From Candidatus Latescibacterota bacterium (GTDB taxonomy: Bacteria; Latescibacterota; UBA2968): a stretch of 64,000 bases of DNA. The position numbers were made by a program, and so were the translations under genes. The DNA lies in NCBI GenBank assembly GCA_965208125.1, contig OZ242320.1, forward strand, positions 4,352,001 to 4,416,000. Reading direction: 5' to 3'. Below the pieces are notes generated by a model. That model saw nothing but the letters and a program-made list of their open reading frames with translations, did no database searches and was not told the DNA's origin. Shown here piece after piece: positions 1 to 16,075 of this stretch. Numbering within the stretch: the first letter of the stretch is position 1; every line of letters begins with the position of its first letter.

Positions 1-196
1 CTAACCTATAAAAGCCGACGATCTGTCCCATTTCTTCTACTACATAGACGGTGTGATGGCTAATATCTTGTTGGGTATAAGTTAGATCCTGGCGGCATGC
101 TTCAAGAAAATCTGCATCGTAGTTCCAATGCGCTTTTGAGCACATTGCAAGGTTACTCAACGCTTCATTTTCGTCAGCTTTTGCAGTTCTGATCAT
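1..196 (-). CDS. GNAT family N-acetyltransferase (cassette gene, runs off window start)
   Basis: Manual translation from ATG at 196: MIRTAKADENEALSNLAMCSKAHWNYDADFLEACRQDL...VGFYRL, a typical GNAT N-terminus; follows the GTTAAATGTAAT cassette start. Confidence 0.8.
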   Translation of the reverse strand, partial: MIRTAKADENEALSNLAMCSKAHWNYDADFLEACRQDLTYTQQDISHHTVYVVEEMGQIVGFYRL

Positions 197-230
197 TGGC
201 GTGATCCCGATAATATGTATTTCTCATTAC

Positions 231-373
231 ATTTAACGGTTTATGGCTTGCGAACCGAGCAGGGGGTGGACGAAGGCCGACGGCTCTTGAAAAGAATCCC
301 CGCCAGAAAACTTATCTCGCAGGGATTTTATGGTGCAGAAATGGTTGATAATGGCAGACTAAATTTGCTACGC
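231..373 (-). repeat. Degenerate attC-like site
   Basis: Right arm CGCAAGCCATAAACC-GTTAAAT (minus) resembles the intact sites; left core is degenerate (GCTACGCGGCAT on + at 367). Confidence 0.5.
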
Positions 374-413
374 GGCATACCTACAGGAGTCAATAGTGTA
401 GAATATCAAACGA

Positions 414-587
414 TCAACCTAAATTTTCAGTCACTGGTTTGGATTCTATCAATTGATCCTGATACTCTTTCTGGCGTTCCATATAGTAAGCGACCAGTTG
501 TGCAGGATCATGGTCGAAACGTGCTGAGATACGGTGACGTATCTTCCGAATTTCGTCTATGACTGGGTCATTCTGATTCTTTTTCAT
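414..587 (-). CDS. Small protein downstream of PIN gene, putative antitoxin
   Basis: MKKNQNDPVIDEIRKIRHRIS...; overlaps the PIN gene stop. Confidence 0.65.
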   Translation of the reverse strand: MKKNQNDPVIDEIRKIRHRISARFDHDPAQLVAYYMERQKEYQDQLIESKPVTENLG

Positions 588-1062
588 TGTTGTCTCCAAG
601 TAGCTCTAAGGGCGTGACCAAGGTTGGCACATATAGCCCCAGCAAAGTATTCACGCGGCGAATGTGGCCAAATTTGTTTGCATTGGCCAAATGACGACAA
701 TTCCAGGTGGCCAAAAATTCGCATTTGTGAAAAGACGCCAGTGCCAAATGGATCGCATCACCTCCAGGATCAGCGGGCATTACCTTGTGCTGAATGTACG
801 TCTGTACGATTTCCAAAATCGCTGGCTCGATGGCCAAAAGGGGTAGGTCCCTAACAACAGCCAATCGTAGTTCCGTGCGCTCTGGAATATCGCCCATTAA
901 TTCGTCCAGAACTGCTGGACTTGTCACCAGGTCATATTGATTTGGCGCATTGTCCCACCACTCCCGAGTCCAGTCTCGTCGAGCTATAATATCAGGGGCA
1001 GTGCGTCTTTCGACGTAAAAACTGGGAATCGAAGTTTCAACATAGACACGTGGTTTGGCCAT
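568..1062 (-). CDS. PIN-domain (VapC-like) ribonuclease toxin
   Basis: VYVETSIPS, DAIHLALA and LATWNCRHLAN motifs. Confidence 0.85.
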   Translation of the reverse strand: MAKPRVYVETSIPSFYVERRTAPDIIARRDWTREWWDNAPNQYDLVTSPAVLDELMGDIPERTELRLAVVRDLPLLAIEPAILEIVQTYIQHKVMPADPGGDAIHLALASFHKCEFLATWNCRHLANANKFGHIRRVNTLLGLYVPTLVTPLELLGDNNEKESE

Positions 1063-1135
1063 ATTTATAAAATACCGCAATTAGCTTGGAAAGGGTAGAG
1101 TAAATTTGTTTGTCTACCAAACTTGGGATCTGCCA

Positions 1136-2026
1136 TCAACGCACCTGCCCCATAGGCCATTCCGAGGTCGGCCTACCTTGCCACGTTGATCGCCTGAAGA
1201 ATCGCCCGCCTGGGGGGCGGCTAAACCAGCTACTAATTGCGATTCCCCAAAAGTGCTCAAAGGACCTGTCTTTTAGATTTGCGTCACAGTATGCGTAGTG
1301 CGACAAGACCTCGTCGAGGAATGACTCTCCGTATATCCAGAACCCATAGAAATCCTTAGCGGGATCTGTGATTTCGACGTCTCCCCAGTCTATGATCCCA
1401 GTAAGTCTTCCGGTCAAGGGGTCATGATAGATGTGTTTGTACCAGAGGTCGTTGTGAGCCAGCACAGACTCGTATGAATGATCGATGCTTTCACTTCTTT
1501 CGATCCATGCTTCGAAAACATTGCGGACCTCACATTGAAGCTCGTCAGCCCGTTCAACGAATAACGCCTTCCACATCCTGCGACGCCTAACCGATGTGTC
1601 GCCCTCTTCTACGCCGAGGCTCCGTGCCTTCGCGACCGGGTAGCTGTGGAGTTCGCTGATGAAAACACCCAGCCTCTGAGCGGCCTCACTGCGGTTCGCC
1701 TTGGAAAGTCTCCAAAACCGCCACGGCGAGAGTCGAGTCCCCGAAATTGTGTGGTATCCCGCAAAATCTGACGCCTTCGGCACGAATGCATAGTCGGGAA
1801 TGGGTATTGCCTTCAGGTTGCTTCTAAGGGCATCCAGGACGGTCCGCTCCCTCGTCAGATTTGTATCCACATCGTTCTCGAACCGGAAAGCGATGCCATT
1901 GTCCAACAGAATCATTACATGATCGGGATCGGCAATGGTCTGAACTCTTCGGTAATTTGCCCACATGAGATCTGGAAAGGCGTTTCTGATTCTCTCCAGG
2001 TAGTAGCTGGAAGCCAATGGGGGCAT
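1136..2026 (-). CDS. Aminoglycoside phosphotransferase / choline kinase-like protein
   Basis: HNDLWYKHI and IIDWGD motifs; start moved to ATG 2026 because the longer ORF crosses an attC. Confidence 0.8.
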   Translation of the reverse strand: MPPLASSYYLERIRNAFPDLMWANYRRVQTIADPDHVMILLDNGIAFRFENDVDTNLTRERTVLDALRSNLKAIPIPDYAFVPKASDFAGYHTISGTRLSPWRFWRLSKANRSEAAQRLGVFISELHSYPVAKARSLGVEEGDTSVRRRRMWKALFVERADELQCEVRNVFEAWIERSESIDHSYESVLAHNDLWYKHIYHDPLTGRLTGIIDWGDVEITDPAKDFYGFWIYGESFLDEVLSHYAYCDANLKDRSFEHFWGIAISSWFSRPPGGRFFRRSTWQGRPTSEWPMGQVR

Positions 2027-2062
2027 GGGGACCTGCCAAAGAGGATTAATTGTCGCGATTTC

Positions 2063-2117
2063 CGCTAACTGTTGGGTGAAGCCCGAATGGCCGAAGCCGT
2101 GTACAGTCGTGTTATGC
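2063..2117 (-). repeat. Short attC-like site, probably internally deleted
   Basis: GCATAAC-ACGACTGTACACGGCTTCGGC...-GTTAGCG (minus); left arm resembles the site at 15123-15206. Confidence 0.65.
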
Positions 2118-2196
2118 GGTGTGCTCACTTCATTACGGCAGGAGAAACTCTGTGGAAAGGTTCCGCAAGCCTGGAGTTAGTGACCGTGCTCCCTCC

Positions 2197-2673
2197 CTAC
2201 TCACGCTCCACGAAATACTTCTTAAATCCACGACTCGTCCCATCTTGCATACCAAGGCTTCTATAGAATCCCACCTGATCTTCGTTTGGACCGCTGAGTA
2301 ACTGTAGCTTGTAGCAGCCCTTCTCTTCGGCAAGGTTAATCGCAAATGTCATCAGTTTTTTCCCAAATCCTTTGCCTCTTTGTTCGCGTGCAACAACGAC
2401 ATTCTCGATGATAGCCCAAGGGCGCCCTTCGTAAGTAAAATTCGGAACGATTGCCATTATGAGGGTGGCGACTATTTCCTTGTCCGATTCGCCCACAACG
2501 ATGAATATGTTGCCGTAGTCAGACATCTCATCAAAGATCCGGATCGACTCTTCGAGTCCGAGAGTCTTGGCCGAAAGACTATGGGGACGGCTCGTGATCT
2601 GAGGAAAGAGATTTAGCAGAGATTCGACGTCTAATCTGGTCGCAACTCGGCAAGAAATGTCTGAATGATTCAT
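2197..2673 (-). CDS. GNAT family N-acetyltransferase
   Basis: IENVVVAREQRGKGFGKKLM motif A; GCYKLQL. Confidence 0.9.
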   Translation of the reverse strand: MNHSDISCRVATRLDVESLLNLFPQITSRPHSLSAKTLGLEESIRIFDEMSDYGNIFIVVGESDKEIVATLIMAIVPNFTYEGRPWAIIENVVVAREQRGKGFGKKLMTFAINLAEEKGCYKLQLLSGPNEDQVGFYRSLGMQDGTSRGFKKYFVERE

Positions 2674-2689
2674 CCGGTGACCTTTCTCG

Positions 2690-2712
2690 ACTACGGACGT
2701 GTTAGCAGAAGT
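2690..2712 (-). repeat. Truncated attC (left core only)
   Basis: TGCTAAC-ACGTCCGT follows the map stop and matches the first bases of the 15206 site's left arm; the remainder is missing. Confidence 0.55.
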
Positions 2713-2720
2713 CAAGCCGC

Positions 2721-3240
2721 TCAGGCCGCAGTTAGCAAGATAGGCCAGCCATCGGTAATAACGACGGTATGCTCAAAATGAGCCGAAAGAGATCCGTTTG
2801 AGGTCCTCACGGTCCAACCGTCGCAATCTTCAACGGCCCGGGCTGGATGCTCGGCAATCATAGGCTCAATGGTGATCACAAGACCATTCGTAAGCGGCTT
2901 CGAATCGAACGGATTGTAGGTGTTTGCAACGATGGGATCTTCATGGATAACCCGACCTACCCCGTGCCCCGCAAGCTCATTGACAACCCAGAATCCTTGT
3001 CGTTTCACCTCGTGCTCTACGGCATGACCGATGCAATTGATCGGTTTGTTTGCACGAGCTACGGCCACCGCCTTTTCGAATGCCGTACGAGCACATCGAC
3101 ACAATCTATCGGCTTTCGCGGAATATGGAGGAATCGGGATGGTGATTGCTGCATCTGCAATGTAGCCATTCAGTTCAGCGGTGACATCCAGGCTTACAAT
3201 GTCACCCTGTTCCAGCACTCGATCACCCAGAATACCGTTT
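2721..3240 (-). pseudogene. map: N-terminally truncated type I methionine aminopeptidase
   Basis: GDIVSLD, DAAIT, GHGVG.IHE, TIEPMI, SAHFEHT motifs; begins at NGILGDR (cf. HGIP), so the N-terminal third is missing. Confidence 0.8.
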
Positions 3241-3255
3241 TGAAGGTGATAACTT

Positions 3256-4587
3256 TCAATATTTTAGTTTTATTATTTTATTTGCTTCTCGGAGACCGCT
3301 TAAAAAAGCTCCGTGTACCGTTCCTCTATAGTCAAAAATAGTGTGTTCACCAGCAAAAAATACTTTATTGCCAATGGGTTCTTCAAACACCTCAAAATCT
3401 GAACTTCTAGAACCACTAGCAACAAATGAGTAGGCGCCGAATGAATACGGGTTTTCGTTCCATTTTGTTCTTAACATATGAGTTGGGTGAGGTATGTCGT
3501 TTCCATAAATCCTTTTAAGATGTAACATAATTTCTTTGATAATCTGTTCATTTGTCATTGTCTCGGTTTGTTTAGAGTAGTCACCAAAAGCAAAAGTCAT
3601 TAACGCATTGGCATCTGCAAACTTTTTTACATTTAAGAAGTAATTGAATTTTCCTTTTGTCTCGGGTGTATAGCCAATATATTGTAGATCTTCTTCCCAA
3701 AATATATCGTCCCAGACTAAAAGAAATTTATTTACTGTACCCATCTTCAGGTTGTTGATGGCGTTTTGGATTTTATTGGGTAAGGCTGGCGTGAATTGTA
3801 TTACGTTCTTCTTGAGTACACCTAAAGGCACAGTAACCAAAACTATATCTGCTGTATAGTTACCATTAGTTGTTTGAATAGAAACCTTATCTTTAGAATA
3901 GTCAATATCTACGACTTTTGTGTTTAATCGAACATCAATGTCCTGGGCTAAATAATTGGTTATATGGTCGTAACCATTTGTAATGATAACATCTTTGCCC
4001 TTAAAAGCTTCATCATCATCAAAATCTAATGAGGACAGCTTGTAAATATCTCCTCCAGTATCAAATTCTAAAAAGGCTGATAGCATATAAGTCCAAAGTC
4101 TTTGATTTTTGTATTGAGGATATTTTTTATAGAAAATATCTGCAAAACTCTGGTCTCTATTACCTGCCAAATTCTCTAAAATGTCGTTGTACTTATCTTC
4201 TGCTGCGTCTAGTTTTTTAGGGATATATTCAGAACCATCTATGTCAAAAACTTTAACATGGAAATCGTCTGTAAAAAAGGTTTTAGCTCCTGACGCATTT
4301 GCAAGTTTAGTAATAGGGTTTTTTATAGGACCGTGAATCCAACTTGCTCCTTCGTCAAAGGCTACTCCAAGACTTCTATCTGTTTTTAATCGTCCGCCAA
4401 CTTTCTCTTGTGCTTCTAAAACAATAGGATTAAATCCATTTTTCTTTAGTTGATTAGCAGCACTTAAACCTGAAATTCCCGCTCCAATGATGATGACGTT
4501 CTTTTTGACCTGTTTGTTTCTATTTGGACTTAGAACGCTACAGGACGAAATGGCAAAAATAAAGAAAAGTAATAATATTTTTTTCAT
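3256..4587 (-). CDS. Flavin monoamine/polyamine oxidase family lipoprotein
   Basis: Lipoprotein-like signal MKKILLLFFIFAISSC; GAGISG, EAQEKVGGR and FAGEHT...GTVHGAFLSG motifs; markedly AT-rich. Confidence 0.9.
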   Translation of the reverse strand: MKKILLLFFIFAISSCSVLSPNRNKQVKKNVIIIGAGISGLSAANQLKKNGFNPIVLEAQEKVGGRLKTDRSLGVAFDEGASWIHGPIKNPITKLANASGAKTFFTDDFHVKVFDIDGSEYIPKKLDAAEDKYNDILENLAGNRDQSFADIFYKKYPQYKNQRLWTYMLSAFLEFDTGGDIYKLSSLDFDDDEAFKGKDVIITNGYDHITNYLAQDIDVRLNTKVVDIDYSKDKVSIQTTNGNYTADIVLVTVPLGVLKKNVIQFTPALPNKIQNAINNLKMGTVNKFLLVWDDIFWEEDLQYIGYTPETKGKFNYFLNVKKFADANALMTFAFGDYSKQTETMTNEQIIKEIMLHLKRIYGNDIPHPTHMLRTKWNENPYSFGAYSFVASGSRSSDFEVFEEPIGNKVFFAGEHTIFDYRGTVHGAFLSGLREANKIIKLKY

Positions 4588-4610
4588 AGAGATTGGTCCT
4601 AATGGCACAC

Positions 4611-4687
4611 AACTACGAGATTGACGAACAGTTACGATAATACGTACCAAATCTATGTATCTTCGACCTTGCGGAAATTCTTCCCTT
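4611..4687 (-). repeat. Second copy of the attI-like site
   Basis: 67/77 identical to 15970-16046; similarity stops at the GTT core. Confidence 0.8.
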
Positions 4688-4711
4688 TATTTCGTGCTTC
4701 TAACCATTGCT

Positions 4712-5692
4712 TTAGCGAACGTTGGCTCTCTCCTGAAGGTCGGCCAGTCCATATATTTCCGACGCTAATATCCTCATTTTGCATGGGTTTGACTGCAAAT
4801 CTCGGTGGAAGTCGTAGGTCCAGTCAACGGGCCGGAATCCCATGTTCGCGTACAGTGAAAGGGCTGGACCGTTGTCTTCGTTCGTACCGATGATCGCGCT
4901 CCGGTATCCTAATTGCGAGGCGTCGTACAGGCCGCGCTGAAGTGTCAACCATCCGTAGCCCTTCCCCTGTTCTGCCTCCACAACGTCAACATCATTCACG
5001 CAGAGCCAAGGACCCTCTCCCTTCTTTACTTCAGATGTCCTGAATGGGCGGCTGAAGTACACACCAACCTCACTGGCGTTCAGAAACGATGTAACACGAA
5101 GTGCAGGCATGTCGCCATCCTCGGGCACAGTTTCAGATCGGAAATCCAGAGGGCAGGACGCGGGAATCGGTTCCTGCGAGAAGCACGGCCACTCAAGTAT
5201 TACGTGACCTCTACTACGAACGTAGCCACGTGCGGCCAAGAGCCCCTGGACGTGAGCCAGGTGATTCGACAAGCTGGCCTGGGGAAGAGATCTGAAGAAG
5301 GGAAAGTTTCTCGAGAAGATCGTGACCGAGGACGCATTGTTCTCCAATGCGTGAGACTCAACTGCGTTGAGTAGCATCTGGCCAGCTCGTCGGCATCCAC
5401 GTTTGTATCCGAGGAATCGGACAATTCCTCTGCCTGTAGGCCTCATGGTCCCGGTGTGTCCTTGCCCTACTAAGGCAAGCCCAACAACCTCGGAACCTGA
5501 AACAGCGACCAGCTTCACTTCTGGCTGGATCCTTCTGTTCTTTCTTCTCTCGTTTCCTCCAACGGCGAAATCAATTTCGTCGGGAGTAAGGGACCTGCAA
5601 TGCGGAACTCCACCAACCAGATCTGCGAAGAACGTAGCCAGGTCCCTCGCCATACTGCTGGTGTAGTTGACGGTTTCAATTCTGCGATTCAT
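4712..5692 (-). CDS. Tandem-domain GNAT acetyltransferase
   Basis: VVEAEQGKGYG and NGPALSLYANMGF motifs; N-terminal degenerate GNAT domain. Confidence 0.75.
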   Translation of the reverse strand: MNRRIETVNYTSSMARDLATFFADLVGGVPHCRSLTPDEIDFAVGGNERRKNRRIQPEVKLVAVSGSEVVGLALVGQGHTGTMRPTGRGIVRFLGYKRGCRRAGQMLLNAVESHALENNASSVTIFSRNFPFFRSLPQASLSNHLAHVQGLLAARGYVRSRGHVILEWPCFSQEPIPASCPLDFRSETVPEDGDMPALRVTSFLNASEVGVYFSRPFRTSEVKKGEGPWLCVNDVDVVEAEQGKGYGWLTLQRGLYDASQLGYRSAIIGTNEDNGPALSLYANMGFRPVDWTYDFHRDLQSNPCKMRILASEIYGLADLQERANVR

Positions 5693-5758
5693 TTTTGAAC
5701 TGACCGTTCAGTCAAATTGTGAAAACCTCAAGAGAAAGTCTAATCATCTTCGCTTGTA

Positions 5759-6283
5759 TCAGTCAACCCATTTCGTCTTTGAAGTAAAGTCTTTGATTTC
5801 TTCTTCCAGGTTCCTCAGAGATTCCTCAATTTTCTTTATTTCCGCCTCCGGTGCATCCTTAAGTCGCAAGTTTTCCAATCGAAGTTGCAGGATTTCACGC
5901 TGCGTAACATAGCCGTAGCCTTTGAGTTGAGTTACAAGATTCGGGAACCCAATATGCTGCGTGTCCCAGTCCAGGATTGTGTATTGAGCTATCTTCCTGC
6001 CTTCCACTTTAAAGGTGACAGACTTCCCTTCTGCTACCTGAGAAACGTAAATAAAGCCCCGCTTCCGAAAGCGCTCATTGTCGCTATTCTCAGCGAGCAA
6101 TCGAGTTAGTCCTTGAACTTTTCGGAAGTGTTCATCGACTCTGCTCACAGCCTTGCTGAATTTCTGGTGATTGAATTGGTCCAGCCTGACTTTCCACCAA
6201 TCCTCTGCTTGTGAAACCGTTGTTGAAAGGAGTACTGCAAGTAGGGTGAAAGCAAGAATACGATTGCCCATGTGGTCCACCAT
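5759..6283 (-). CDS. Secreted hypothetical protein with C-terminal coiled coil
   Basis: Signal peptide ILAFTLLAVLLSTTVSQA; EK-rich C-terminal helix. Confidence 0.6.
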   Translation of the reverse strand: MVDHMGNRILAFTLLAVLLSTTVSQAEDWWKVRLDQFNHQKFSKAVSRVDEHFRKVQGLTRLLAENSDNERFRKRGFIYVSQVAEGKSVTFKVEGRKIAQYTILDWDTQHIGFPNLVTQLKGYGYVTQREILQLRLENLRLKDAPEAEIKKIEESLRNLEEEIKDFTSKTKWVD

Positions 6284-6370
6284 TTTAAAGGAAGAGGGGT
6301 TCGGGTTGATCAGAAAGATTTCTGCGTCAGGTTCAAATTTGTTAATGCCTGAGATGTGAGCCTACTCACT

Positions 6371-6425
6371 GTTGTGTTATGCGGCATGCTCACTTCTTTA
6401 CGGAGGGAGAAGCTCTGTGGAAAGG
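6371..6425 (-). repeat. Cassette 3'-end element with left attC core, repeated at 2106-2160
   Basis: 48/55 identical to 2106-2160; contains GCATAAC (minus). Confidence 0.7.
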
Positions 6426-7783
6426 CCCCCCGAGAAACCTCTTTCTTTGATTTGCGCCACGAAGCCATTGATCTCCGCCTGACTCAAGATATCATTTCCA
6501 CTTATAATAAGCTGGCCACCCAGGTGAGCCAGGTTCTTCAGTCCTCTCAGACTTCTTAGTCGTGGATTGTTGCTGATTTCCAAATGGCCGCCAATGGATG
6601 TAAGATGCTCCAGGCCTTCCAGACTCTCCAGTTGTTCGTTCTGGCGTATGTAGAGGAAGCCTCCAATTTCCTTTAGTGCTTGCAGACCATCGAGGACGGC
6701 AAGGTTGTTGTTGGCCGTAATATGTATGCCGCGGGAGACGTACCGTAGGCTTCGCAGCCCCTGCAAGTCTCGCAGGGAGTGGTTAGATACGATCAGCAAG
6801 CGACCATCAATAGACTCGATTCTATGAAGTCCCTCCAGCGACGCCAGCTTTGGATGGCCGTCCAGGCGGAGATCCCTTGGTACAGTTTTGATTCTGTTTA
6901 GGGATGCGATGCTCTGTAGTGATTCGTTGTGGAGTATGTAAATGTCTCTGCCTACTCTCTCTACATTGAGCCCATCCAGGTTGAGCAGGTCGGGATTCCG
7001 AATAAGCTTCAGGTCCCGCGCTACATTGGTGATCGTCTCACATTGGGTAATGCCATGAAGACCATCGCACCGGAAGATGCATAGATCACCGTATGTGGCA
7101 GCCAGACGATTATGCGATATGTCCTTCTCCTGGAGGCCTGGCGATAGGTGGGAAAGGATTGTCGTCAAGTATTCAGGCCATTGATGGTCGGTCATATCGA
7201 TTCTGCATACTCGGACGTCCAGCTTGCCAATTAACTCATCCGTCATCTCTCGAAACGCGGTATAGAGTTGGGCGTAGCCAGCGAATCCTCTCCACCCATT
7301 CCTCTTAGCCCGAGCCCGTGTGGTGACCTTGAGGTTGATCTGGGTATTCTCCCAGCGATTTCCCCGGTCATCACAGGTACGTCGCAGGAAACTCGGCACG
7401 TCAGACTGCATCAGATAAACCACAGTCGGGTTGAGTTGCGAAACTGCATTAATGACTCCTCGAACGTAGTTCTCGATTGTGACGGGTTCAACGTCGTTGA
7501 AGAACAGCTCTGCCGTATTGCGATGAAATAGCTGGCCATCGAGGACGGTGACCGAATCGTTCTGCGCTCTTGAGGCGGTGAAGTCTCGCCATCTTTCCAG
7601 ACTCTCCTCTATCTGGCAGGCCTCGCCTTGCCACTCCATCCGAGTTGGATGATTTGGATCCTTCTCATGAATATGTGCGGTTGGTATCCCGTTTCGTTCA
7701 AGCTGCGAGCAAAGGAACTCTGCTGTATTGGTCTTCCCGGAGCCAGGGATTCCTTCCACAAAGATCAACTTGGTGTTCAGCAA
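6398..7783 (-). CDS. P-loop nucleotide kinase-like domain fused to receptor-L/leucine-rich repeats
   Basis: IFVEGIPGSGKT Walker A; repeated LxxLxGLxxLxxIGGxLxIxxN units; TTG start after GGAGG. Confidence 0.7.
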   Translation of the reverse strand: MLNTKLIFVEGIPGSGKTNTAEFLCSQLERNGIPTAHIHEKDPNHPTRMEWQGEACQIEESLERWRDFTASRAQNDSVTVLDGQLFHRNTAELFFNDVEPVTIENYVRGVINAVSQLNPTVVYLMQSDVPSFLRRTCDDRGNRWENTQINLKVTTRARAKRNGWRGFAGYAQLYTAFREMTDELIGKLDVRVCRIDMTDHQWPEYLTTILSHLSPGLQEKDISHNRLAATYGDLCIFRCDGLHGITQCETITNVARDLKLIRNPDLLNLDGLNVERVGRDIYILHNESLQSIASLNRIKTVPRDLRLDGHPKLASLEGLHRIESIDGRLLIVSNHSLRDLQGLRSLRYVSRGIHITANNNLAVLDGLQALKEIGGFLYIRQNEQLESLEGLEHLTSIGGHLEISNNPRLRSLRGLKNLAHLGGQLIISGNDILSQAEINGFVAQIKERGFSGGLSTELLPP

Positions 7784-7888
7784 TGCAGCCTCCGTGATGG
7801 CTGTAGTGTTCTGCCCAAAACGGCCTCTCACGAGCTTGTTGGCTCGATTACATAAACACCAGAACGGATGCAGTTCTATGTGGACCTG

Positions 7889-8635
7889 TTAAGCACCCTG
7901 TGGGGGACCGGATATAGGTTTTCCCAACCTCATGAGTAATAACATCGGCCAACCAAGATCAAAATCTTCTGGAAACTCAGTCCAGTACTCCTTCGCTCTG
8001 GGCGACTTCTCAAGCAGGCATTCGTCAGCAAGATGCTCCTCAATGCGATCAATCTGAAGTTGGGCCTTCAAGGCTGCATTGACATAGTCCGCGGTCTGGT
8101 GGTGATAGCCCTCGACGTTAACCTTTTGGCCTGTCTTCATATCAGTGAAGCGAGCCTGTAGGCGACGGAGACGCATCGCTGGGTGGAGTTCTGAGATGAG
8201 AATGAAACCTCCTGGCCGACAGATCCTCGCCATTTCTCCGATTACTGGATCCAAACCAGAAATGTGCTCCAGGACGAGGCAGCATAGGACGCGATCAAAG
8301 GTATCATTCTCGAATGGGAGGCGCTCTGTCAGATCATGGGTAACGAATCGCACATCGTGGTCTTTCGTCTTCTCAATAGCTTGCGCCATCATTTCTGGAG
8401 CGAAGTCAATTGCGGTCACCCTGGCACCTGCTTCTGACAGATAGAGGGTATGACGTCCCGTACCGCAGCCGATATCAGCGACGCTGAGTTCTTGGACATT
8501 CCCCAACAGGGATCGCAATAGCGGCTCTTCCAAAATAATCAAGGAATTGTCCTGCGTATCGTACGTCTCAGACCAACGAGCGTAGCCTTGCCGGACAGGT
8601 ACGGTTTCAAGATCGGCCCCAGACCCGTCATTCAT
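7889..8635 (-). CDS. Class I SAM-dependent methyltransferase
   Basis: VADIGCGTGR, LPFENDTFD, RPGG motifs. Confidence 0.9.
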   Translation of the reverse strand: MNDGSGADLETVPVRQGYARWSETYDTQDNSLIILEEPLLRSLLGNVQELSVADIGCGTGRHTLYLSEAGARVTAIDFAPEMMAQAIEKTKDHDVRFVTHDLTERLPFENDTFDRVLCCLVLEHISGLDPVIGEMARICRPGGFILISELHPAMRLRRLQARFTDMKTGQKVNVEGYHHQTADYVNAALKAQLQIDRIEEHLADECLLEKSPRAKEYWTEFPEDFDLGWPMLLLMRLGKPISGPPQGA

Positions 8636-8856
8636 GTTGTATGCCTCCAGGATAATGCCGGTGGTCCTGCCCAAAGTTAATACTCAAATAAGATAGCCCC
8701 AACAGCATCGAGTCGATATTGGTTGCCATCGTATGCAATCGTCGTAACGGAGCATTCACGCATTACTTCACCACTGTATGGGTCATTGCAGAATTCCGGA
8801 CTGATGCGACTCAGTTCTTCAGATTCGCCCCCGACTGAACACAACTCGGTGGAAAA

Positions 8857-9576
8857 TCATGACTTACTCGATTTGTCCCTCTGCGCCAACATCTGTTGTC
8901 TAACTTTTCTCTTTAAGTTCTTCTTTCTCTCCCGCTCTTCCTTTTTTTTCTGCCGTTCCTCTCTTTTTGTTTTGCGATGCTGTTGGCTTTTTTTAACCTT
9001 CTGAATCCATTCTACTCTATTGGCTAAGATTTCAGGGCTACTCTTTTCGCCATATGAAAGCTTGTTTAGAAAATCTATAATTTCATGCTGTCTTCCTCCA
9101 ATTAAATCTGTGGCTCCAGGCCGAGTCAGTCCTCCCTCAAGTTCCCAATGATACCTATGAATCAAGGTGTCTATGAGGACCATCTTCTCTTTTGGAGATC
9201 TCGCAGTCTGGTATTTTTGGAGGAACTCTTGGAGAAAGACCGTGAGACCAGAGGCAGCAAGATGCTTACCTTGTTTGGCTTTATGATACTCGCCCCAGGT
9301 GAGTTCCCAGTTGCACGATTCGCATCTCAGAATCGTATCCTTCATACCGTCGTGGTCTATCTGGCGATCACATAATGGACATCTTGCTCGTCCAGTACTG
9401 GCTTCTCGTGCTTTGAAAATGCTTTCGATACGAGCGAAGAGTCCAATCCCCACGTCTTCAATAAGCTCTTCGTCTACTATGCCCTGTGCATCAGTTGCAT
9501 AAAGGCGGGCTATTTTTTCTCTTGGAACTCGACTTGCCCAAGTTGGCCTGTCGTGTCTTGGTTTCGGGTTGCTCAT
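8857..9576 (-). CDS. Hypothetical protein with zinc ribbon and basic C-terminal tail
   Basis: CPLC...CESC; K/R-rich tail. Confidence 0.65.
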   Translation of the reverse strand: MSNPKPRHDRPTWASRVPREKIARLYATDAQGIVDEELIEDVGIGLFARIESIFKAREASTGRARCPLCDRQIDHDGMKDTILRCESCNWELTWGEYHKAKQGKHLAASGLTVFLQEFLQKYQTARSPKEKMVLIDTLIHRYHWELEGGLTRPGATDLIGGRQHEIIDFLNKLSYGEKSSPEILANRVEWIQKVKKSQQHRKTKREERQKKKEERERKKNLKRKVRQQMLAQRDKSSKS

Positions 9577-9717
9577 GTATTCCTTAGAGATTTTTCAGGT
9601 TGGTCGATTTGGTGAAAACTCGAAGAATCAGAAAAGTTCGAGAATATGATGGGGAGTGGGTTCTGTTTTTGTTTTTGCACGCTAAAGGGTTTTTCTGGGT
9701 GGTGTTGGGGCGATTGC

Positions 9718-9857
9718 CCATAACGTCTCGCCGGTTGCCGATGTGGCCGTGATCAGTTAAACAAATCGCTGCTTTTACAATCAGGAAACACAAAGCTTCA
9801 CGAGCCATTTGGGTCGGAGCAACCGCAGGGAGCGGAGCCTGCAACTTGATGTTAACT
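9718..9857 (-). repeat. attC-like site (140 bp)
   Basis: AGTTAAC...CCGGCGAGAC-GTTATGG (minus); left end GTTAACTGC (+) matches the start of its own cassette at 12226. Confidence 0.8.
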
Positions 9858-9906
9858 GCTGTGGCGGTGCCGGGCTGCATTTGCCAGGACAGCAAATGCG
9901 GCTTCG

Positions 9907-12210
9907 TCAGGAACATCCGAGGTGTTCATCAAACCAAGCGACAATGCGGTTCCAGTAGTCCACTTGATTGGAGTATTCCCACTCACTTGGGGCATGTCTT
10001 TCGCCTTCGTACTTTGCATACACCACCTCTTTTCCAAGACGACGAAGGCCAACAAATATCTCATCGGCCAGAAACGAAGGTACCGCATAATCGACAGCTC
10101 CGTGGATAATAAAAAGTGGCGTTTGTACCCTATCGAGGTAGAATACGGGTGAATTCTCGATATACCGATCCCGAAATTGCCAGGGGGTGCCGCCCATTCT
10201 ACCTTGGCCTTCCTCTGCCCACGGGAGTCCATAAGTTGATCCATCTTTTCTCATTGCCCCATACGCGCCCAGTAAATTACCTTGCGCTGCACTGGCAACG
10301 GCTGCCTTAAAGAGTGTTGACTGAACAATCAACCCCAGTACGCAATATCCGCCATAGCTGTGACCCATTATCCCAAGACGATCAGGATCGGCAATCCCCA
10401 TCTCAACTGCTTTGTTTACACCCGGAAGCACGGTCTTGGCAAGGTCTTGCATCGGGGTTCCCACTTGAAGGGGCGCATCAGGAGAGAGAACTGCGTATCC
10501 TCGTGTGGCGAGCAGCTGTAGGTTATCAACTCCAGAGCCTTCTAGGCCGAACGTATTTAGGTTGTTCGACCCCCACCTGCCACCATACACGCGAACTACA
10601 AGTGGATACCGTCTTCCTGATTCATAGTTGGGCGGAAGCAACAACGCACCCCGTAGCCTCTGGCCATCGGCACTTCTCCATTCGATGAGACGACTCGCTC
10701 CCATGCTAGTCGCGTCAAGCAACGGATTAAGGCAAGTTAATCGTCTTGGATTCTGGAAATCAACGTCTGAGATCCAGATATCCTCGCTATGCTGAGCACC
10801 CTGTTTTATGTAAGCCACACGCTGCTCATCGTCAGAAATATCGATGGTATAGATGGTAGGGCGACCGCAATCCGCATCCTCTTCAAAAAGTCGTGTTAAC
10901 TGTCCCGTAGTCAGGTCAACTTTGTAGAATCCAATGTGTCTGGTTTCATCATCCCGTGTAATCAGAAACAGTGATTGACCTCCATCTGGCGACCAGAAGC
11001 GTCCCCCTTCCGCAGGAGAAACCACTTCCATTATTTCTCCACCTGAAATACGTGTAATATGCGTCGCCGTTGCATCAGGTACAGAGATGCGCCATAAAGC
11101 ATCAGAAACGAGGCAATAGAGGTTTTGTCCCTTGGAGTCCCATAAGGGAGCACGATAAACATGGTAAAAATTGGGATGTGGTTCCTTAGTCAAGTTTCGT
11201 GGCTCACCTCCGCTGGCAGACACAACGAAACAATCTCCGTCTGATATATAACTGAGTAGCTGCCCATCGGGAGACCAGCTGACGGAAATTGCGCGCTTTT
11301 GTTGAATATCTGTTGCAAAGACTTGAGAGCGAGTATCAGACAGAGAGACAACGATGAGTTTATTCTCCAAGATTGTAAATGCAATGTTCATACCATCTGG
11401 AGATATCCAGTAGCCGAGGACTTTCATTCGGTGTACGATACGTTGCACCTCTCCATTGGAAACATCGATCAAGGCAAGATCAGAAAGGTAAATATTCGTG
11501 ACCTCAATTTCTTGCATGTTGTCCTGCTGTTGTCCCACGTCATCTCCCTGCTTTGTGGCTTCGGGTGAGCGGTAGACAGCGACTGAGGGCTGATCTGCTT
11601 CTTTTTGATCATCCTTCGGCAATGGAGGACCCATAAAAAGACTGCAAGCTTCTTCAAGCGTCATCCTCTGCGGCAGGATTTTGCAGAGAATTTTCTGACT
11701 ATCCGGTGTCCAACGGACAATTTCGGAACCGTAATAAGGACGTACAATAGCGTCAGATACTTGCCTCAATGTATCGGATGACTTTTCCCACACCCAAAGC
11801 TGTGCTTGGCCATTCTGATCTGAATAAAAGGCAAGATAGTTTCCATTGGGGGACCATACCGGGCCCCAGCCATTACCTTTGCCTTCTGTCAAGCACCTTG
11901 ACTCACCAGATATAGAATTGGTGACCCAGACCTCACAACCAATCCTCAATCTTGGCATGCCTGAGCGACTAAAAAAGCTATATCTTTCATCGCCTGTTTT
12001 CTCCTTTTTTCGAGGGTTTTGGACTGTGTAGGCAACCCACTCGCCATCTGGAGAAAGGTCGATAGGTGTTTGTGGAGAAAAAGAGAGCGACGAAAGTACA
12101 TCTTCAGTTTCTATGTGCATCCATTTCTCCTTACAATAACTGATAGCCTCCACAACAGAGGTTTCTCTTTTGAGGAGGCGCCTTCCTGGCGCCTCCTGGT
12201 TTTCCGGCAC
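9907..12210 (-). CDS. S9 family prolyl oligopeptidase / dipeptidyl peptidase
   Basis: WSPDG beta-propeller repeats; GHSYGG nucleophile, HGAVD and GERH motifs. Confidence 0.9.
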   Translation of the reverse strand: MPENQEAPGRRLLKRETSVVEAISYCKEKWMHIETEDVLSSLSFSPQTPIDLSPDGEWVAYTVQNPRKKEKTGDERYSFFSRSGMPRLRIGCEVWVTNSISGESRCLTEGKGNGWGPVWSPNGNYLAFYSDQNGQAQLWVWEKSSDTLRQVSDAIVRPYYGSEIVRWTPDSQKILCKILPQRMTLEEACSLFMGPPLPKDDQKEADQPSVAVYRSPEATKQGDDVGQQQDNMQEIEVTNIYLSDLALIDVSNGEVQRIVHRMKVLGYWISPDGMNIAFTILENKLIVVSLSDTRSQVFATDIQQKRAISVSWSPDGQLLSYISDGDCFVVSASGGEPRNLTKEPHPNFYHVYRAPLWDSKGQNLYCLVSDALWRISVPDATATHITRISGGEIMEVVSPAEGGRFWSPDGGQSLFLITRDDETRHIGFYKVDLTTGQLTRLFEEDADCGRPTIYTIDISDDEQRVAYIKQGAQHSEDIWISDVDFQNPRRLTCLNPLLDATSMGASRLIEWRSADGQRLRGALLLPPNYESGRRYPLVVRVYGGRWGSNNLNTFGLEGSGVDNLQLLATRGYAVLSPDAPLQVGTPMQDLAKTVLPGVNKAVEMGIADPDRLGIMGHSYGGYCVLGLIVQSTLFKAAVASAAQGNLLGAYGAMRKDGSTYGLPWAEEGQGRMGGTPWQFRDRYIENSPVFYLDRVQTPLFIIHGAVDYAVPSFLADEIFVGLRRLGKEVVYAKYEGERHAPSEWEYSNQVDYWNRIVAWFDEHLGCS

Positions 12211-12219
12211 CGTTATTGC

Positions 12220-12310
12220 AGTTAACGTTTCGCCGGTTTGCGAACCCGCGCAGCGGGTTGCCGAAGGCCAAGGCGCGAACTGCGCCGCAGCGCAAACCGT
12301 GCTGTTAGAG
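12220..12310 (-). repeat. attC-like site (91 bp)
   Basis: CTCTAAC-AGCA-CGGTTTGCG...CGCAAACCG-GCGAAAC-GTTAACT with two internal hairpins. Confidence 0.9.
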
Positions 12311-12351
12311 GACGTTGTGCCTTCCCTGACACCCGACTGACACCGAGATGC

Positions 12352-13173
12352 TCAGGGAATGAAGCACTCATCTCTCCCCCTATGGACAAAGATCGAGTTC
12401 TCGCCATGCTCGCCGAGTTGAAATATGCACTCGAATCCGTAGGATTGCAGCTCCGCTACAAGCCTCTTCCGATCCCGATAACACCTCTTGGGAATGTAGG
12501 CCTTGCCGTTAACGAGGAGCGTGTCACTGCAGGCTTCTACCTGCTCCAGCGCGGAAGGCGCCTTTTCCAGCGGCTCGTAGTAGTAGTCCGTTGACGGATC
12601 GTAAAGGCAATCGCCGTCATAGATATCATAAGTTTGGCCGGTGGAGCGATCCACGATTTTCCTATCTGGGCTATGTCGTCTGGACTCATAAAGCGAAGAA
12701 CTTACGAGGTAGTAGCCCTTGGGCTTCAGCCTAGCCTTGACGCTCTCGAAGACTGATTTGCGCTCTTCGGAGAAGACGATGTGGTTGATGCAGTAACTAT
12801 CAATTATCAAGTCAAACCGGCGCCCACTGTGTGGAATCGCCGTCACATCCACCACCTCATAAGTAATAGCCAAGCCTCGGACGGAAGCTATCTCCTTGGC
12901 CGTCCGGATCGCCTCCGGTATCACGTCATAACCCGTGACTTGGTAGCCCCGTTCTGCAAGAAACAGGGCGACCGGCCCCACGCCCGTCCCAAGTTCGAGC
13001 ACTACTGGATTCGGCGTCTTGAACCGGAGCTTTGGCAAGGCCATATCGAGGAATTCCCGAGACGAGAAATCGTGGAAATCGATGCCACCATACGTCTGCG
13101 TTGCCCAATCTTTCAGACCCATCTGGGTCATGGTCTCGTAACGCCGGGCATTTTCACGGAAATAGTATCTCAT
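12352..13173 (-). CDS. Class I SAM-dependent methyltransferase
   Basis: VLELGTGVG, FDLIID, LKPKG motifs. Confidence 0.85.
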   Translation of the reverse strand: MRYYFRENARRYETMTQMGLKDWATQTYGGIDFHDFSSREFLDMALPKLRFKTPNPVVLELGTGVGPVALFLAERGYQVTGYDVIPEAIRTAKEIASVRGLAITYEVVDVTAIPHSGRRFDLIIDSYCINHIVFSEERKSVFESVKARLKPKGYYLVSSSLYESRRHSPDRKIVDRSTGQTYDIYDGDCLYDPSTDYYYEPLEKAPSALEQVEACSDTLLVNGKAYIPKRCYRDRKRLVAELQSYGFECIFQLGEHGENSIFVHRGRDECFIP

Positions 13174-13188
13174 TCACAATGTCCTCTA

Positions 13189-14125
13189 GGTAGTGTCTGA
13201 AAAGTCGTAAAGTATGTATTTTAGTTGCAGCATACGCCCAAGACAAAGGAGTATGATATGCAACGGAGATACGAACTGAGCGACGACGAATGGCATCTGA
13301 TCCAAGACTTGTTTCCACCGCCGAAGAAGATGGGTCGTCCCCGTCGAGATGATCGTACATTATTCAACGGGGTCTTCTGGATATTGTGTTCAGGTGCAGC
13401 TTGGCGCGACCTACCAGAACGATATGGTCCTTGGCAGACAGCCTTTGATCGATTCTGCAAATGGAAACAGGATGGCACTTTTGATCGCATTGTAGAAAAA
13501 TTGCATCTCAAATTGGATGAAGATGGCCTTTTAGATTATGCGACCTGGATGATGGATGCAACCCATATTCGAGCCACACAAGCCGCAGCAGGGGCGAAAA
13601 AAAAAGGGTAAAGAGGGTGAAGAAGAGCCCCCAGACCACGCTTTAGGACGCTCTCGTGGCGGTTTGACCACGAAAATCCATCTTCTTTGCGATGCAGTCG
13701 GGCATCCTTTAGCAGTGGACCTGCTCCCTGGCAACCAGTCAGAATCCACACAGGCTGAAAGGCTGTTATCAAAGGTACGCATACCCACCAAACAAGGACG
13801 TCCAAGAAACCGACCTCAGTATCTGGTGGCTGATAAATCTTATGATGTCTCACGCATCAGAGTCTATCTACGCAAACGGGGTATCAAGGCTGCTATCCCA
13901 AACAAGGCGATTCCTAAAGGCAGAAAACGGCGTAAGAGAGGACCAAGGCCAAAGTGTGATAAAAGATTATATGCCAAACGCAATATCGTAGAGCGTCTCT
14001 TTGGTTGGCTCAAACACTGCCGACGGATTGTGACTCGGTTTGAAAAAAAGGCGACTCATTTTCTCACTATGGTCAAGCTGGCCTGCATCAGACAACTCTT
14101 CAAAGCTTACTTTTCAGACACTACC
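13189..14125 (+). mobile_element. IS5-family (IS427-like) insertion sequence, 937 bp
   Basis: 17-bp TIR GGTAGTGTCTGAAAAGT / ACTTTTCAGACACTACC; TA duplication at 13187-13188 and 14126-14127. Confidence 0.92.
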
Positions 14126-14128
14126 TAA
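13258..14128 (+). CDS. IS5-family transposase in two frames, split at an A9 run (13597-13605)
   Basis: OrfA WRDLPERYGPW and MDAT; OrfB LGRSRGGLTTKIH, ADKSYD, RNIVERLF. Confidence 0.9.
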
Positions 14129-14220
14129 CGTTTCGCCGGTTTGCGAACCCCGAGCTTGTCGAGGGGTTGCCGAAGGCCAAGGCGCGACCAGCGCCGCAGC
14201 GCAACACCGTGCTGTTAGAC
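14123..14220 (-). repeat. attC-like site with right core rebuilt by the IS end
   Basis: Nearly identical to 12220-12310; GTCTAAC...GGCGAAAC-GTTAGGT. Confidence 0.9.
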
Positions 14221-15105
14221 GACGTGCCCTGCCATTCTCTCGAGTGAGTTCCGGGCTATCCGTTCTATCTCCTCCCCTGGTAACAAAGCAATGTCTTCGA
14301 AATCCACCACCTTTTCTAATGAGCGGATTACTTCCCGTCCAAGGAAGTGGCCACATCCACTGCGCCCCTTTATGCTGAACCAAGAGCCGAAGAATGAATT
14401 CACTGGCTGATCCCCATCTACCAGTTTCAGAAATTCGGTAGCAAGCCAGGCTTTGTTTGACGTGCACCAGGCGAGCCAATTCTCCTCGCCATATTGTTCA
14501 TGCCATGAATCGTCACCAAATACAATTTGCTCGCTACGGACCGCAAATCCCTCGCGATAAAGCTGCCAAAAAGGCCCCTTACCAGACGGTAAACCGCTTC
14601 GTTTGCGGCGCTGTATGTGGAGAAGATGGCCCAACTCGTGGGCAGTGAGGCCGGTCAGCGCCTTCTCTGTAGTGTAGCCACATTCAGCAATGTTCTCTAA
14701 TCCGAAGAGGCAAGCAGACCTCCCTCCAAGGCTAGTGGCCCATCCCGCGCCGCAACCAATTCCCACATAGATCATGAAGAGAACGTCAAAATCCAGATCA
14801 AGAGACTCCTGTGCCCTGCGGTATACTTTATCTATACAGGTTAACAATACAGCTCTCGCCTTTCCCATGGACGGCAACCGCTCCTGCAGATATGGGAAAA
14901 CTTTATCTTTTCCAATCGCGCGCCACCCCCCTTCCTGGCCAATGTAATCCTTTTGCTGTTTTTCGAGCAGTTCGGGCCACTGTGACATGTATTCAGTGGC
15001 CCAAAGCTCCAACTGCGTCTCAAGCGGTTTCACATGGACGGCCTCCCAAAAGGAGAGGAAAGCAGGAAACGTATCAACGATCTCGCACTGTGCCATCTTT
15101 AACAT
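14215..15105 (-). CDS. Putative zinc metallopeptidase (DUF2268-like)
   Basis: AHELGH HExxH motif followed by EGFA; its stop TAA lies inside the attC core. Confidence 0.65.
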   Translation of the reverse strand: MLKMAQCEIVDTFPAFLSFWEAVHVKPLETQLELWATEYMSQWPELLEKQQKDYIGQEGGWRAIGKDKVFPYLQERLPSMGKARAVLLTCIDKVYRRAQESLDLDFDVLFMIYVGIGCGAGWATSLGGRSACLFGLENIAECGYTTEKALTGLTAHELGHLLHIQRRKRSGLPSGKGPFWQLYREGFAVRSEQIVFGDDSWHEQYGEENWLAWCTSNKAWLATEFLKLVDGDQPVNSFFGSWFSIKGRSGCGHFLGREVIRSLEKVVDFEDIALLPGEEIERIARNSLERMAGHVV

Positions 15106-15122
15106 CTTGACCTCGGCATGTC

Positions 15123-15206
15123 GTCTAACGTTTTCGCCGTGTCCGAACCGCGAAGCGGTTGCGCGAAGGCGCCTCAGCGCCGAAGCCGGGCACGGACGTG
15201 TTACGC
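15123..15206 (-). repeat. attC-like site (84 bp)
   Basis: GCGTAAC-ACGT-CCGTGCCCG...CGGACACGG-CGAAAAC-GTTAGAC. Confidence 0.9.
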
Positions 15207-15256
15207 GCTGTGCTGCTACTGGCCCTCACCAAGGCAGTTCCGTCAAGTCTCATACT

Positions 15257-15913
15257 TCACGAATACATCGACAGATCATCCCAGTCCGGCCATAGCGTCG
15301 GTCGAGTTAATTTCGGATCGGGATGCCAGTCTTCCCACTCGGCAGAGAACGGACCCAAGTTCTGCTCAATCTCCTCAACTGCCCGCTGGCCTTCTGCATA
15401 GATCGCCTCAGCATCTTCGGCACTCACTCTACCGTCCTGCATACACAGCTCGAGTTCGTCCTCGTTTTTCCACCTCCACTCTCGGTTTGGCTCGACGAGA
15501 ATATCAAGCTGATGGTCCCTCAAGTCGAAACCCAACCGTGTACGCGTCAGCTCGCTCTGCATGTTTACGTACCACCCTAAGAACTCACGCTCTCTTGACC
15601 ATCTGACCCACGTCGCCCGTTGCTGATGGGGGTTGACGACGATCAATAGCTCAGCCCATTGCCAAGTCGAATCCTGAAGCGCCCAGTTGTTCTTGGTCCA
15701 CCGACGTGGCGTCCCAGGCGTGTGGTTTATTAGCTCCGCCTTCTTTGAAGGTGTATTCAGTGGGAGCCAAAGGACGATCTGGATATCAGAATCTTCGACT
15801 ACGGTGACAGGCTTCACATCGATGATTTGCCCATGTTCATCAGTCTCTCGATAAAGAATGGATTCACCGCGGCTAAATATGTTGGCTCCTTGGTACATTT
15901 GGGACTTCCTCAC
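15257..15913 (-). CDS. DUF402 domain protein (first cassette)
   Basis: FLGWYVNMQ, DHQLDILV, WRWKNEDEL motifs. Confidence 0.85.
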   Translation of the reverse strand: MRKSQMYQGANIFSRGESILYRETDEHGQIIDVKPVTVVEDSDIQIVLWLPLNTPSKKAELINHTPGTPRRWTKNNWALQDSTWQWAELLIVVNPHQQRATWVRWSREREFLGWYVNMQSELTRTRLGFDLRDHQLDILVEPNREWRWKNEDELELCMQDGRVSAEDAEAIYAEGQRAVEEIEQNLGPFSAEWEDWHPDPKLTRPTLWPDWDDLSMYS

Positions 15914-15965
15914 ACGGTACAGCCAGAAGATCCTATCAGCCTCGAAGTACCCGCAATGGCATGGC

Positions 15966-16075
15966 GCGTAACTACGGGATTAACGAACAGTTACGGTAAT
16001 ACATACCAAATCTATCTATCTCCGCACGTGCGGGAATTCTTCCCTTCAAAGGTTGTATCCCGAACATGTTCGGGA
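15966..16075 (-). other. attI-like recombination site overlapping the recombinase 3' end
   Basis: GTTACGC core where cassette 1 begins (complement at 15200); not an attC palindrome; conserved second copy at 4611. Confidence 0.75.

Follow-up and report, generated by a model that had tools for sequence, protein, structure and literature searches.

Conserved bases beyond the R box at cassette junctions of integron-type arrays linked to a recombinase clade without the I2 insertion

Canonical integrons recombine the bottom strand of their attC sites (59-base elements), which are imperfect palindromes with AAC and GTT triplets, an unpaired central spacer, and a variable loop. The R box of attC is described as the site to which the integrase binds, and RYYYAAC as being cleaved between its A and C (PMC7439510, PMC11641012). 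In published descriptions a consensus of seven nucleotides (nt) defines this box, the structural features listed are the extrahelical bases, the central spacer, and the variable loop (PMC7439510, PMC11641012, PMC3053210), and recognition of attC is described as structural, the extrahelical bases being read by the I2 helix (PMC7439510, PMC11641012, PMC4792948). Here we describe an integron-type cassette array that occupies the minus strand of positions 1-16000 of a 64,000-nt stretch from a Candidatus Latescibacterota bacterium (contig OZ242320.1, positions 4,352,001 to 4,416,000; hereafter, the window), downstream of an IntI-like recombinase gene. Eight cassette starts in this array read GTT-N6-MAT (M, A or C), and this pattern is real and general beyond the window, recurring in arrays of many phyla. 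We consider it probable, at roughly 0.8, that the motif is the outer end of a lengthened R arm of attC, bound by the recombinase, in arrays that belong to recombinases lacking I2.

Inspection of the host genome, a single contig of 5.75 Mb, revealed that the window holds a chromosomal run of minus-strand genes with hairpin sites between them, and that both the cassettes and the tyrosine recombinase gene upstream of them at 16012-16842 are on the same strand. The cassette genes are of unrelated types, and encode a DUF402 protein, two methyltransferases, an S9 peptidase, GNAT acetyltransferases, an APH-family kinase, and an amine oxidase. In the nearest public locus, L001, the flanking genes are the same, the recombinase is 92% identical, and the cassettes are different. 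The homologous attI-like sequences of the two loci diverge exactly past ...CCCGTAGTTA, right after GTTA, which is the behavior of an attI site having its crossover at G|TT. The window presents the recombinase gene, adjoining attI, and cassette array of an integron platform, and this layout recurs in L001, L003, L004, L033, and metagenome loci. Three copies of the attI-like core are found in the genome, site A next to the recombinase gene, site B in mid-array, and copy C ~20.2 kb left of the window. The region of site A at 15961-16046 is self-similar to 4602-4687, and copy C has only a core of ~25 nt in common with the others. As in canonical integrons, the array begins at an attI site by the recombinase gene, the crossover register is G|TT, and the cassette start pairs with its own R''; in contrast to canonical integrons, the recombinase gene reads in the same direction as the cassettes.

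A first-pass annotation of the window, made from the letters alone, had listed the eight 12-mers as GTT-N6-(A/C)AT, and all of them are present, seven directly and one once an insertion sequence (IS) is removed (Table 1). Four of the starts (15129, the IS-split 14129/13188, 12226, and 9724) are the R' ends of attC hairpins found with a covariance model, which was built from four window attC sites and cut to end at GTT. This model strongly recovered its four training sites and marginally a site at 2048-2119 (E-value 1.2); across the whole genome only the training sites were matched, and the model is uninformative on the rest of the array. For the start at 2069, a duplicate of the APH cassette 18 kb to the left carries an attC whose R'' flank is the exact 12-nt complement. 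The starts at 15972 and 4613 come right after two of the attI-like cores, and the start at 237, the least supported of the eight, is indicated by a hairpin, a weight-matrix score, and an alignment. At 15972, 15129, and 12226, the 9-mer GTT plus N6 matches exactly the reverse complement of the R'' box in the attC that follows downstream, the rebuilt start of cassette 3 likewise matches that of its own R'', and this complementarity fixes the register of the junctions independently of MAT. The opposite cassette ends, said mostly to read GTT-N6-NGT on the plus strand, do so at 15200, 14214, 12304, 9851, and 2111.

The further statement that all starts read MAT is true of the eight listed but too strong in general, given that attI copy C is followed by CCT, that the first cassette of L001 starts with AAC, and that a decayed attC near 6330-6387 has no recognizable R' GTT. 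A possible junction at 1140, GTT GATGGC AGA, is ambiguous and falls within the APH reading frame, at its 3' end. The APH duplicate still matches the window 22 nt beyond this point, and the junction was counted neither way. A weight-matrix scan for additional junctions gave 53 matches on the cassette strand and 44 on the other, and was retained only as a pointer given this noise. The bare GTTN6MAT pattern is not enriched in the window, where it has 62 matches versus 80 ± 9 in shuffled sequence, and the signal consequently lies in the presence of the motif at independently defined junctions.

Conservation of the motif was assessed in loci encoding relatives of the recombinase with 35-92% identity, comprising 43 genome loci (Gemmatimonadales, Fusibacter, and many Bacteroidota among them) and 80 metagenome loci kept from about 586 metagenome relatives. 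Positions were counted from the G of GTT as +1 on the cassette side, and from the C of AAC as -1 on the R'' side. All covariance-model matches in these loci were downstream of the recombinase and on its strand. Their 37 junctions had A or C at +10 without exception, A at +11 in 36, M-A in 36, and M-A-T in 18. A second set was obtained with a hairpin finder that required AAC, a GTT 36-170 nt further on, and a stable L-stem duplex; the two triplets were preset, and the finder was blind to positions 4-12. At a threshold of ≤ -12 kcal/mol, it returned 93 raw matches downstream on the recombinase strand as opposed to 16-18 in twice as much upstream control DNA, and 75 non-window sites downstream on that strand as opposed to 14-16 in control regions, again with twice as much DNA. 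L003 by itself contributed 13 passing sites, all of them on the recombinase strand.

After removal of overlaps and dereplication, 63 non-window junctions from 40 loci remained, of which 53 had M-A at +10/+11 and 31 had M-A-T (binomial p relative to local base composition, 1e-30 and 9e-27). The motif was specific to orientation, as M-A was found in 0/24 hairpins taken by the same finder from the opposite strand; the upstream control hairpins had it in 4/14 and 2/16. It was shared by the metagenome loci (31/37), the Bacteroidota-type loci (10/11), and the other genome loci (12/15). The first-pass annotation had proposed a larger junction set as the test of MAT, and in this set the conservation persists, with T the weakest letter. 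The information content was 1.29 bits at +4, 0.85 at +8, 0.61 at +10, 1.23 at +11, and 0.35 at +12, dropping to ~0 from +13; position +11 is thus conserved about as strongly as +4, and there is almost no information at +5 to +7 and +9. The corresponding counts on the cassette side were 57/65 for A at +4, 49/65 for G at +8, 55/65 for A at +11, and 37/65 for T at +12, and those on the R'' side were 52/65 for C at -8, 48/65 for C at -11, and 35/65 for A at -12. From the crossover G|TT, the cassette-side consensus is G TTA K V Y G M M A T, and the R''-side consensus is A C N K C R N A T A A C. The earlier remark that several starts break the canonical GTTRRRY rule holds for the family at large, whose core consensus is GTTAKVY and in which GTTRRRY is obeyed at only 15/63 junctions.

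The folded sites share with canonical attC the two triplets, the imperfect palindrome, the unpaired spacer, and the variable loop. The folds at 15115-15214, 14115-14228, and 12212-12309 pair AAC with GTT, as expected of an attC palindrome of ~55-150 nt, and site lengths run from 46 to 165 nt with a median of 94. The inner site reads AAC-A ... RAAC-GTT, and most sites have a central spacer of 1 x 5 nt, a point of difference from canonical integrons. Within the L stem, the commonest first irregularity was a single bulged A on the L'' side (10-13/65), and many sites had an unbroken L helix of 9-13 base pairs (bp). An irregularity ~11-12 bp into the L arm, matching that of the R arm, was looked for, and the pattern was heterogeneous.

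The R arm is where these sites depart from the canonical form. Sixteen distinct cassettes from related loci had both ends found, with N6 matching at 5 or 6 of 6 positions. Across these, positions 1-9 of the cassette start formed Watson-Crick pairs with the cassette's own R'' in 14-16 of the 16. Position 10 was mixed (8 Watson-Crick pairs, 6 mismatches, and 2 wobbles), and position 11 was never Watson-Crick paired, with A opposite C in 13 cassettes and another mismatch in 3. Pairing resumed at positions 12-15 (13-14/16) and faded at 16-18. Cassettes 1-4 of the window show the same pattern. The A·C mismatch of the top strand at position 11 becomes a T·G wobble in the bottom strand, and MAT on the minus strand versus NGT on the plus strand is this position-11 asymmetry viewed from both ends. 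Whereas canonical attC sites are described with an R arm of 7, the conserved R arm here is 12 nt, the R helix is ~15 bp, and A·C/T·G is fixed at position 11.

These results bear on two parts of the earlier interpretation. N6 had been read as a variable spacer, yet its bases are paired and make up the body of the R helix, since GTT plus N6 is the reverse complement of the cassette's own R''; within N6, A at +4 and G at +8 are conserved. A second conserved half-site outside the classical R box had also been suggested. There is indeed a conserved element outside the 7-nt R' box, as the information at +10 to +12 attests, but MAT is not a free-standing site, being set opposite a conserved A-C of R'' (-12/-11), with which it makes the position-11 mismatch and then an A-T pair at position 12. 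Once a cassette is excised and circular, its flanks pair over ~15 bp. In the array, R'' instead faces the start of the following cassette, and in this hybrid helix (n = 65) Watson-Crick pairs were found at positions 1-3 in 65/65, at position 4 in 52/65, and at position 8 in 48/65, with G·T in the bottom strand at position 11 in 43/65. Matches are therefore kept in the array only at the conserved positions 1-4 and 8, together with the wobble at position 11.

The recombinase associated with these sites has the tyrosine recombinase catalytic fold (PF00589 match, 1e-43). Its predicted model has a mean predicted local distance difference test score (pLDDT) of 84 and matches PDB 2a3v; this structure, IntI4 (VchIntIA), was the best solved-structure match by both sequence (147 bits) and Foldseek (E-value 1.6e-15, 34% identity). 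When aligned by BLASTP, IntI1 was 31% identical and shared the C-terminal SPLDAL, with gaps of 27 and 14 residues at the extra domain of IntI1. The integrase_gron profile (TIGR02249) has a cut-off of 265 bits, below which fell both the window copy (197) and the full-length L001 protein (214); the profile matched in two pieces with its positions 174-235 skipped, and no TIGR02249 match above cut-off was present in the host genome. The spacing between GKxxKDR and HxLRH was 58-60 residues in 93/95 clade proteins, versus 99-100 in IntI1 and in 16/17 of the phylum's canonical IntI proteins; the genome's two Xer-like proteins have a spacing of 65. The IntI-specific insertion of ~35-40 residues near patch III, which bears the I2 helix, is absent from this recombinase and from 93/95 relatives. 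Like IntI, the clade enzyme adjoins attI and an attC array; unlike IntI, it has an extra N-terminal domain of ~80 residues, found in 53 full-length relatives and predicted with pLDDT ~90 to be beta-beta-alpha-beta-beta-alpha. Foldseek searches with this domain gave no match at E ≤ 0.001. Weak fold matches were to the UvsW N-domain (VIA-align Z 5.9, below the stated noise level), then XPB DRD, SMARCAL1 HARP, and MotA, all of which are DNA-structure-binding domains.

In several phyla, members of the clade (L001-L123 and the window) are consistently followed by attC arrays that lie on the strand of the recombinase. The earlier interpretation of the motif was partly right, and the feature is tied to an unusual recombinase clade. 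Smyshlyaev et al. 2021 state that the insertion "is not fully conserved" in an integron-like subgroup (PMC8138268). Canonical IntI was found in 17/168 genomes of the phylum and in 0/20 of the window's genus. In a quick FastTree phylogeny rooted on two Xer sequences only, the 17 canonical IntI (support 1.0) appear nested in the I2-less group, which we regard as a lead. The window recombinase itself is lacking residues 17-134 of its L001 homologue (L001 10001-11131). The deletion, flanked by short direct repeats, removes the greater part of the N-terminal extension together with a portion of the SAM-like domain, and the window copy is, from its sequence, probably inactive.

Two other groups of I2-less enzymes invite comparison. 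Recombinases without intI_Cterm described by Cury et al. 2016 also have PF00589 without the IntI-specific region and lie beside attC sites; in that survey, they are 21 scattered proteins with <3 attC sites each, judged "not IntI" (PMC4889954), whereas the proteins here form one coherent clade with arrays. The XerC/XerD-dif system and the single-stranded, dif-mimicking attP hairpins of CTX phage share with the present sites an I2-less recombinase and a long, nearly fully paired arm. A possible resemblance to dif lies in the arm motif, as the E. coli XerD arm fits TT-N6-AAT. In contrast to dif, a dimer-resolution site of 28 bp that occurs once in the chromosome and offers XerC and XerD two arms of 11 bp, the hairpins here are cassette-borne and numerous, and are arranged in arrays with attI. 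The host genome has separate XerC/D-like genes elsewhere, its best dif-like candidate has ACT at positions 10-12, and the array sites do not qualify as Xer/dif sites.

In the reading that we favor, the R arm in these arrays extends over 12 conserved nt in place of the textbook 7 bp, with MAT as the outer end of a putative 12-bp recombinase-binding arm. The arms of Xer and Cre sites are 11-13 bp and are contacted by the recombinase, and by analogy the clade enzyme would contact positions 8-12. A tyrosine recombinase cuts at the inner edge of its bound arm. Since the cut falls at G|TT, the monomer bound to R covers TT and the bases beyond it; binding on the cassette side of GTT, as suggested in the first-pass annotation, is therefore simply the textbook arrangement, and the new point is an arm that reaches position 12 or beyond. 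An integrated attC has a hybrid R helix, which the conserved outer positions may hold or mark and keep in register. The wobble, which is impossible in duplex DNA and would for that reason mark the folded bottom strand, may help in distinguishing that strand from both duplex DNA and the top strand.

Several observations weigh against this extended-arm reading. The proposed contact with +8 to +12 has its basis in the analogy with Xer and Cre. The APH cassette of the window has a Watson-Crick A-T pair at position 11, and the CCT after attI copy C departs from the motif. T at +12 is only moderately conserved, so that the family-wide motif is better written M-A-(T>C>G), and M-A itself is missing at 10/63 junctions, with ~9 false positives expected among the finder matches. 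The binomial p values overstate independence because the relatives share ancestry. The hairpin finder missed the window attC sites at 9724, 2069, and 237, and the junction set is accordingly biased toward sites with strong L helices. The stability gained by the bottom strand through the wobble is small, with a mean of 0.5 kcal/mol and the bottom strand more stable in 10/16, and for this reason thermodynamic strand bias was dropped as the main explanation. Finally, given the 118-residue internal deletion in its recombinase, the window array may now be static.

We judge it unlikely that the extended motif is general to all integrons and was left out of the textbook consensus. N6 does pair with R'' in class 1 cassettes too, and some class 1 starts read CAT or CAG (aadA1 and the cassettes that follow blaGES-1 and dfrA1). 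At canonical starts M-A modestly exceeds chance, at ~7/21 versus ~17% expected, in a total made up of 13 class 1 starts from six plasmid records and 8 same-phylum starts. Separately, M-A stands at ~4/13 of the class 1 starts and 3/8 of the starts in arrays beside same-phylum canonical IntI genes, versus 53/63 in the clade (Fisher test on the counts available then, p = 1e-5). The canonical samples in this comparison are small and were picked by eye from the finder output, few same-phylum canonical sites having passed the finder, but their distance from the clade value is clear.

It is very unlikely that MAT is shared merely through common descent, as a passenger without function in recently duplicated attC sites. 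Clear copies do exist, as L003 repeats GTT AGACGC CAG GTCCCC and the window shares one identical junction with L033. The attC sites of one host are also known to be alike (PMC8352920). Against this, the signal persists after dereplication in the 63 junctions and 40 loci, with recombinases 35-63% identical and from several phyla, and N6 co-varies with R''. The near absence of information at +5 to +7, +9, and +13 onward further indicates that the sequence has turned over around the conserved bases.

A role of the conserved bases in expression, as a promoter -10-like element or a translation signal at the head of the cassette, seems slightly less likely still. The end of the motif, ...GMAAT, is loosely like the end of a -10 hexamer, and N6 of cassette 3 (AGAGGA) is placed 11 nt ahead of an ATG. 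However, the partner positions at the other end of the cassette, C at -11 and A at -12, are conserved equally strongly, the distance from motif to start codon varies from ~10 to >100 nt in the window, and a promoter would not need a fixed non-Watson-Crick position in a co-varying helix. Chance combined with reader selection, in which starts were called wherever the loose GTT-N6-MAT happened to occur, can be dismissed, for while the window count shows no excess, the ~10 minus-strand matches in 1-16000 are the chance number, and junction 237 has little independent support, five window junctions were defined without the motif and the covariance-model and blindly found hairpin junctions of related loci conserve it where the control hairpins do not. 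The extended, recombinase-bound R arm remains the reading that we prefer.

Table 1. Coordinates of the recombinase gene, recombination sites, and cassette junctions in the window
Feature	Coordinates	Strand	Remarks
Tyrosine recombinase gene, IntI-like without IntI-specific insertion	16012..16842	-	Residues 17-134 of L001 homologue missing
attI-like site A	15970..16046	-	Core GTAACTGTTCGTTAATCCCGTA then G|TT, point of between-genome divergence; alignment of three genome copies and L001
attC of cassette 1	15127..15211	-	R'' flank ACA GCGCGT AAC to R' GTT; covariance model 76 bits; hairpin fold
attC of cassette 2	14126..14225	-	R' box split by IS; covariance model 107 bits
IS5-family insertion sequence in attC R' box	13189..14125	+	937 bp; Pfam DUF4096 and DDE_Tnp_1; TA duplication 13187-13188 / 14126-14127
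attC of cassette 3	12224..12315	-	Covariance model 92 bits; fold
attC of cassette 4, long form	9722..9862	-	Covariance model 58 bits
attI-like site B and junction 6	4602..4687	-	AT-rich amine-oxidase cassette next
Short attC, R'' flank ACA CCGCAT AAC, and junction 7	2058..2122	-	Marginal covariance-model match; weight-matrix scores; complement in left duplicate
Probable attC with junction 8	226..360	-	Alignment, fold, weight matrix; weakest of eight
Junction 1, attI then first cassette, GTT ACGCGC CAT	15961..15972	-	GTTACGCGCCAT; start pairs with R'' at 15200-15211
Junction 2, GTT AGACGA CAT	15118..15129	-	GTTAGACGACAT
Junction 3, cassette-side remainder, rebuilt GTT AGAGGA CAT	13179..13188	-	GTTAGAGGACAT after removing IS 13189-14125 and one TA copy
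Junction 4, GTT AACTGC AAT	12215..12226	-	GTTAACTGCAAT
Junction 5, GTT ATGGGC AAT	9713..9724	-	GTTATGGGCAAT; identical junction in L033
Junction 6, GTT GTGTGC CAT	4602..4613	-	GTTGTGTGCCAT
Junction 7, GTT AGCGGA AAT	2058..2069	-	GTTAGCGGAAAT
Junction 8, GTT AAATGT AAT	226..237	-	GTTAAATGTAAT

Several further features stand out in this and related arrays. The two frames of the IS5-family element at 13189-14125, encoding DUF4096 and DDE_Tnp_1, meet at an A-run. The AT-rich flavin amine-oxidase cassette that follows attI copy B (3256-4650) abuts a 5'-truncated M24 peptidase gene at 2721-3218 with no attC between them, in what looks like a deletion or an illegitimate join. The APH-family cassette at 1118-2040 is duplicated 17.3-18.2 kb left of the window with 98.7% identity; only the left copy has kept its attC, and at ~1118 the window copy is fused to DNA of another cassette. 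A 58-nt module with copies at 2103-2160 and 6368-6425 (86% identical) directly precedes R'' in two cassettes that are unrelated, the second copy belonging to the decayed attC near 6330-6387, and a perfect 131-nt repeat is shared by 8693-8823, an intergenic position in the array, and a point ~4 kb left of the window. In the Gemmatimonadales locus L003, 13600-20450 consists of many near-identical short cassettes with a period of ~340 nt that start GTT AGRCGC CAG GTCCCC, the GTCCCC of which is able to pair with a GGGAC just ahead of GTT.

The findings touch the definition of both the site and the enzyme. In place of the 7-nt R-box description, one array lineage keeps a 12-nt arm with a fixed wobble, and its arrays are paired with a recombinase without I2, the domain thought to define integron integrases. 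In searches of the openly accessible full-text literature, we found no extended R box, no position-11 wobble, and no attC arrays tied to I2-less recombinases. Finders that require an IntI-specific profile would class these arrays as clusters without integrase, and may misplace their cassette borders. The combination AC-N-N6-AAC ... GTT-N6-MA provides a sharper, orientation-specific signature for such cassettes in metagenomes.

A wider proposal, which we put forward tentatively and think doubtful on balance, is that these arrays are a second and possibly ancestral kind of integron. In it, an IntI-like recombinase that never had I2, or lost it, would run attC arrays across many phyla by reading the bottom strand through the position-11 T·G wobble of a long R helix rather than through extrahelical bases, and the extra N-terminal domain may be what reads the wobble. 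Escudero et al. 2016 speculate on a Xer-like, I2-less ancestor of integrons (PMC4792948), and a nesting of canonical IntI within the clade would fit such an ancestor. If the wobble is a recognition mark, it would offer a testable route to single-strand recombination without I2, and would bear on the origin of integrons from Xer-like enzymes.

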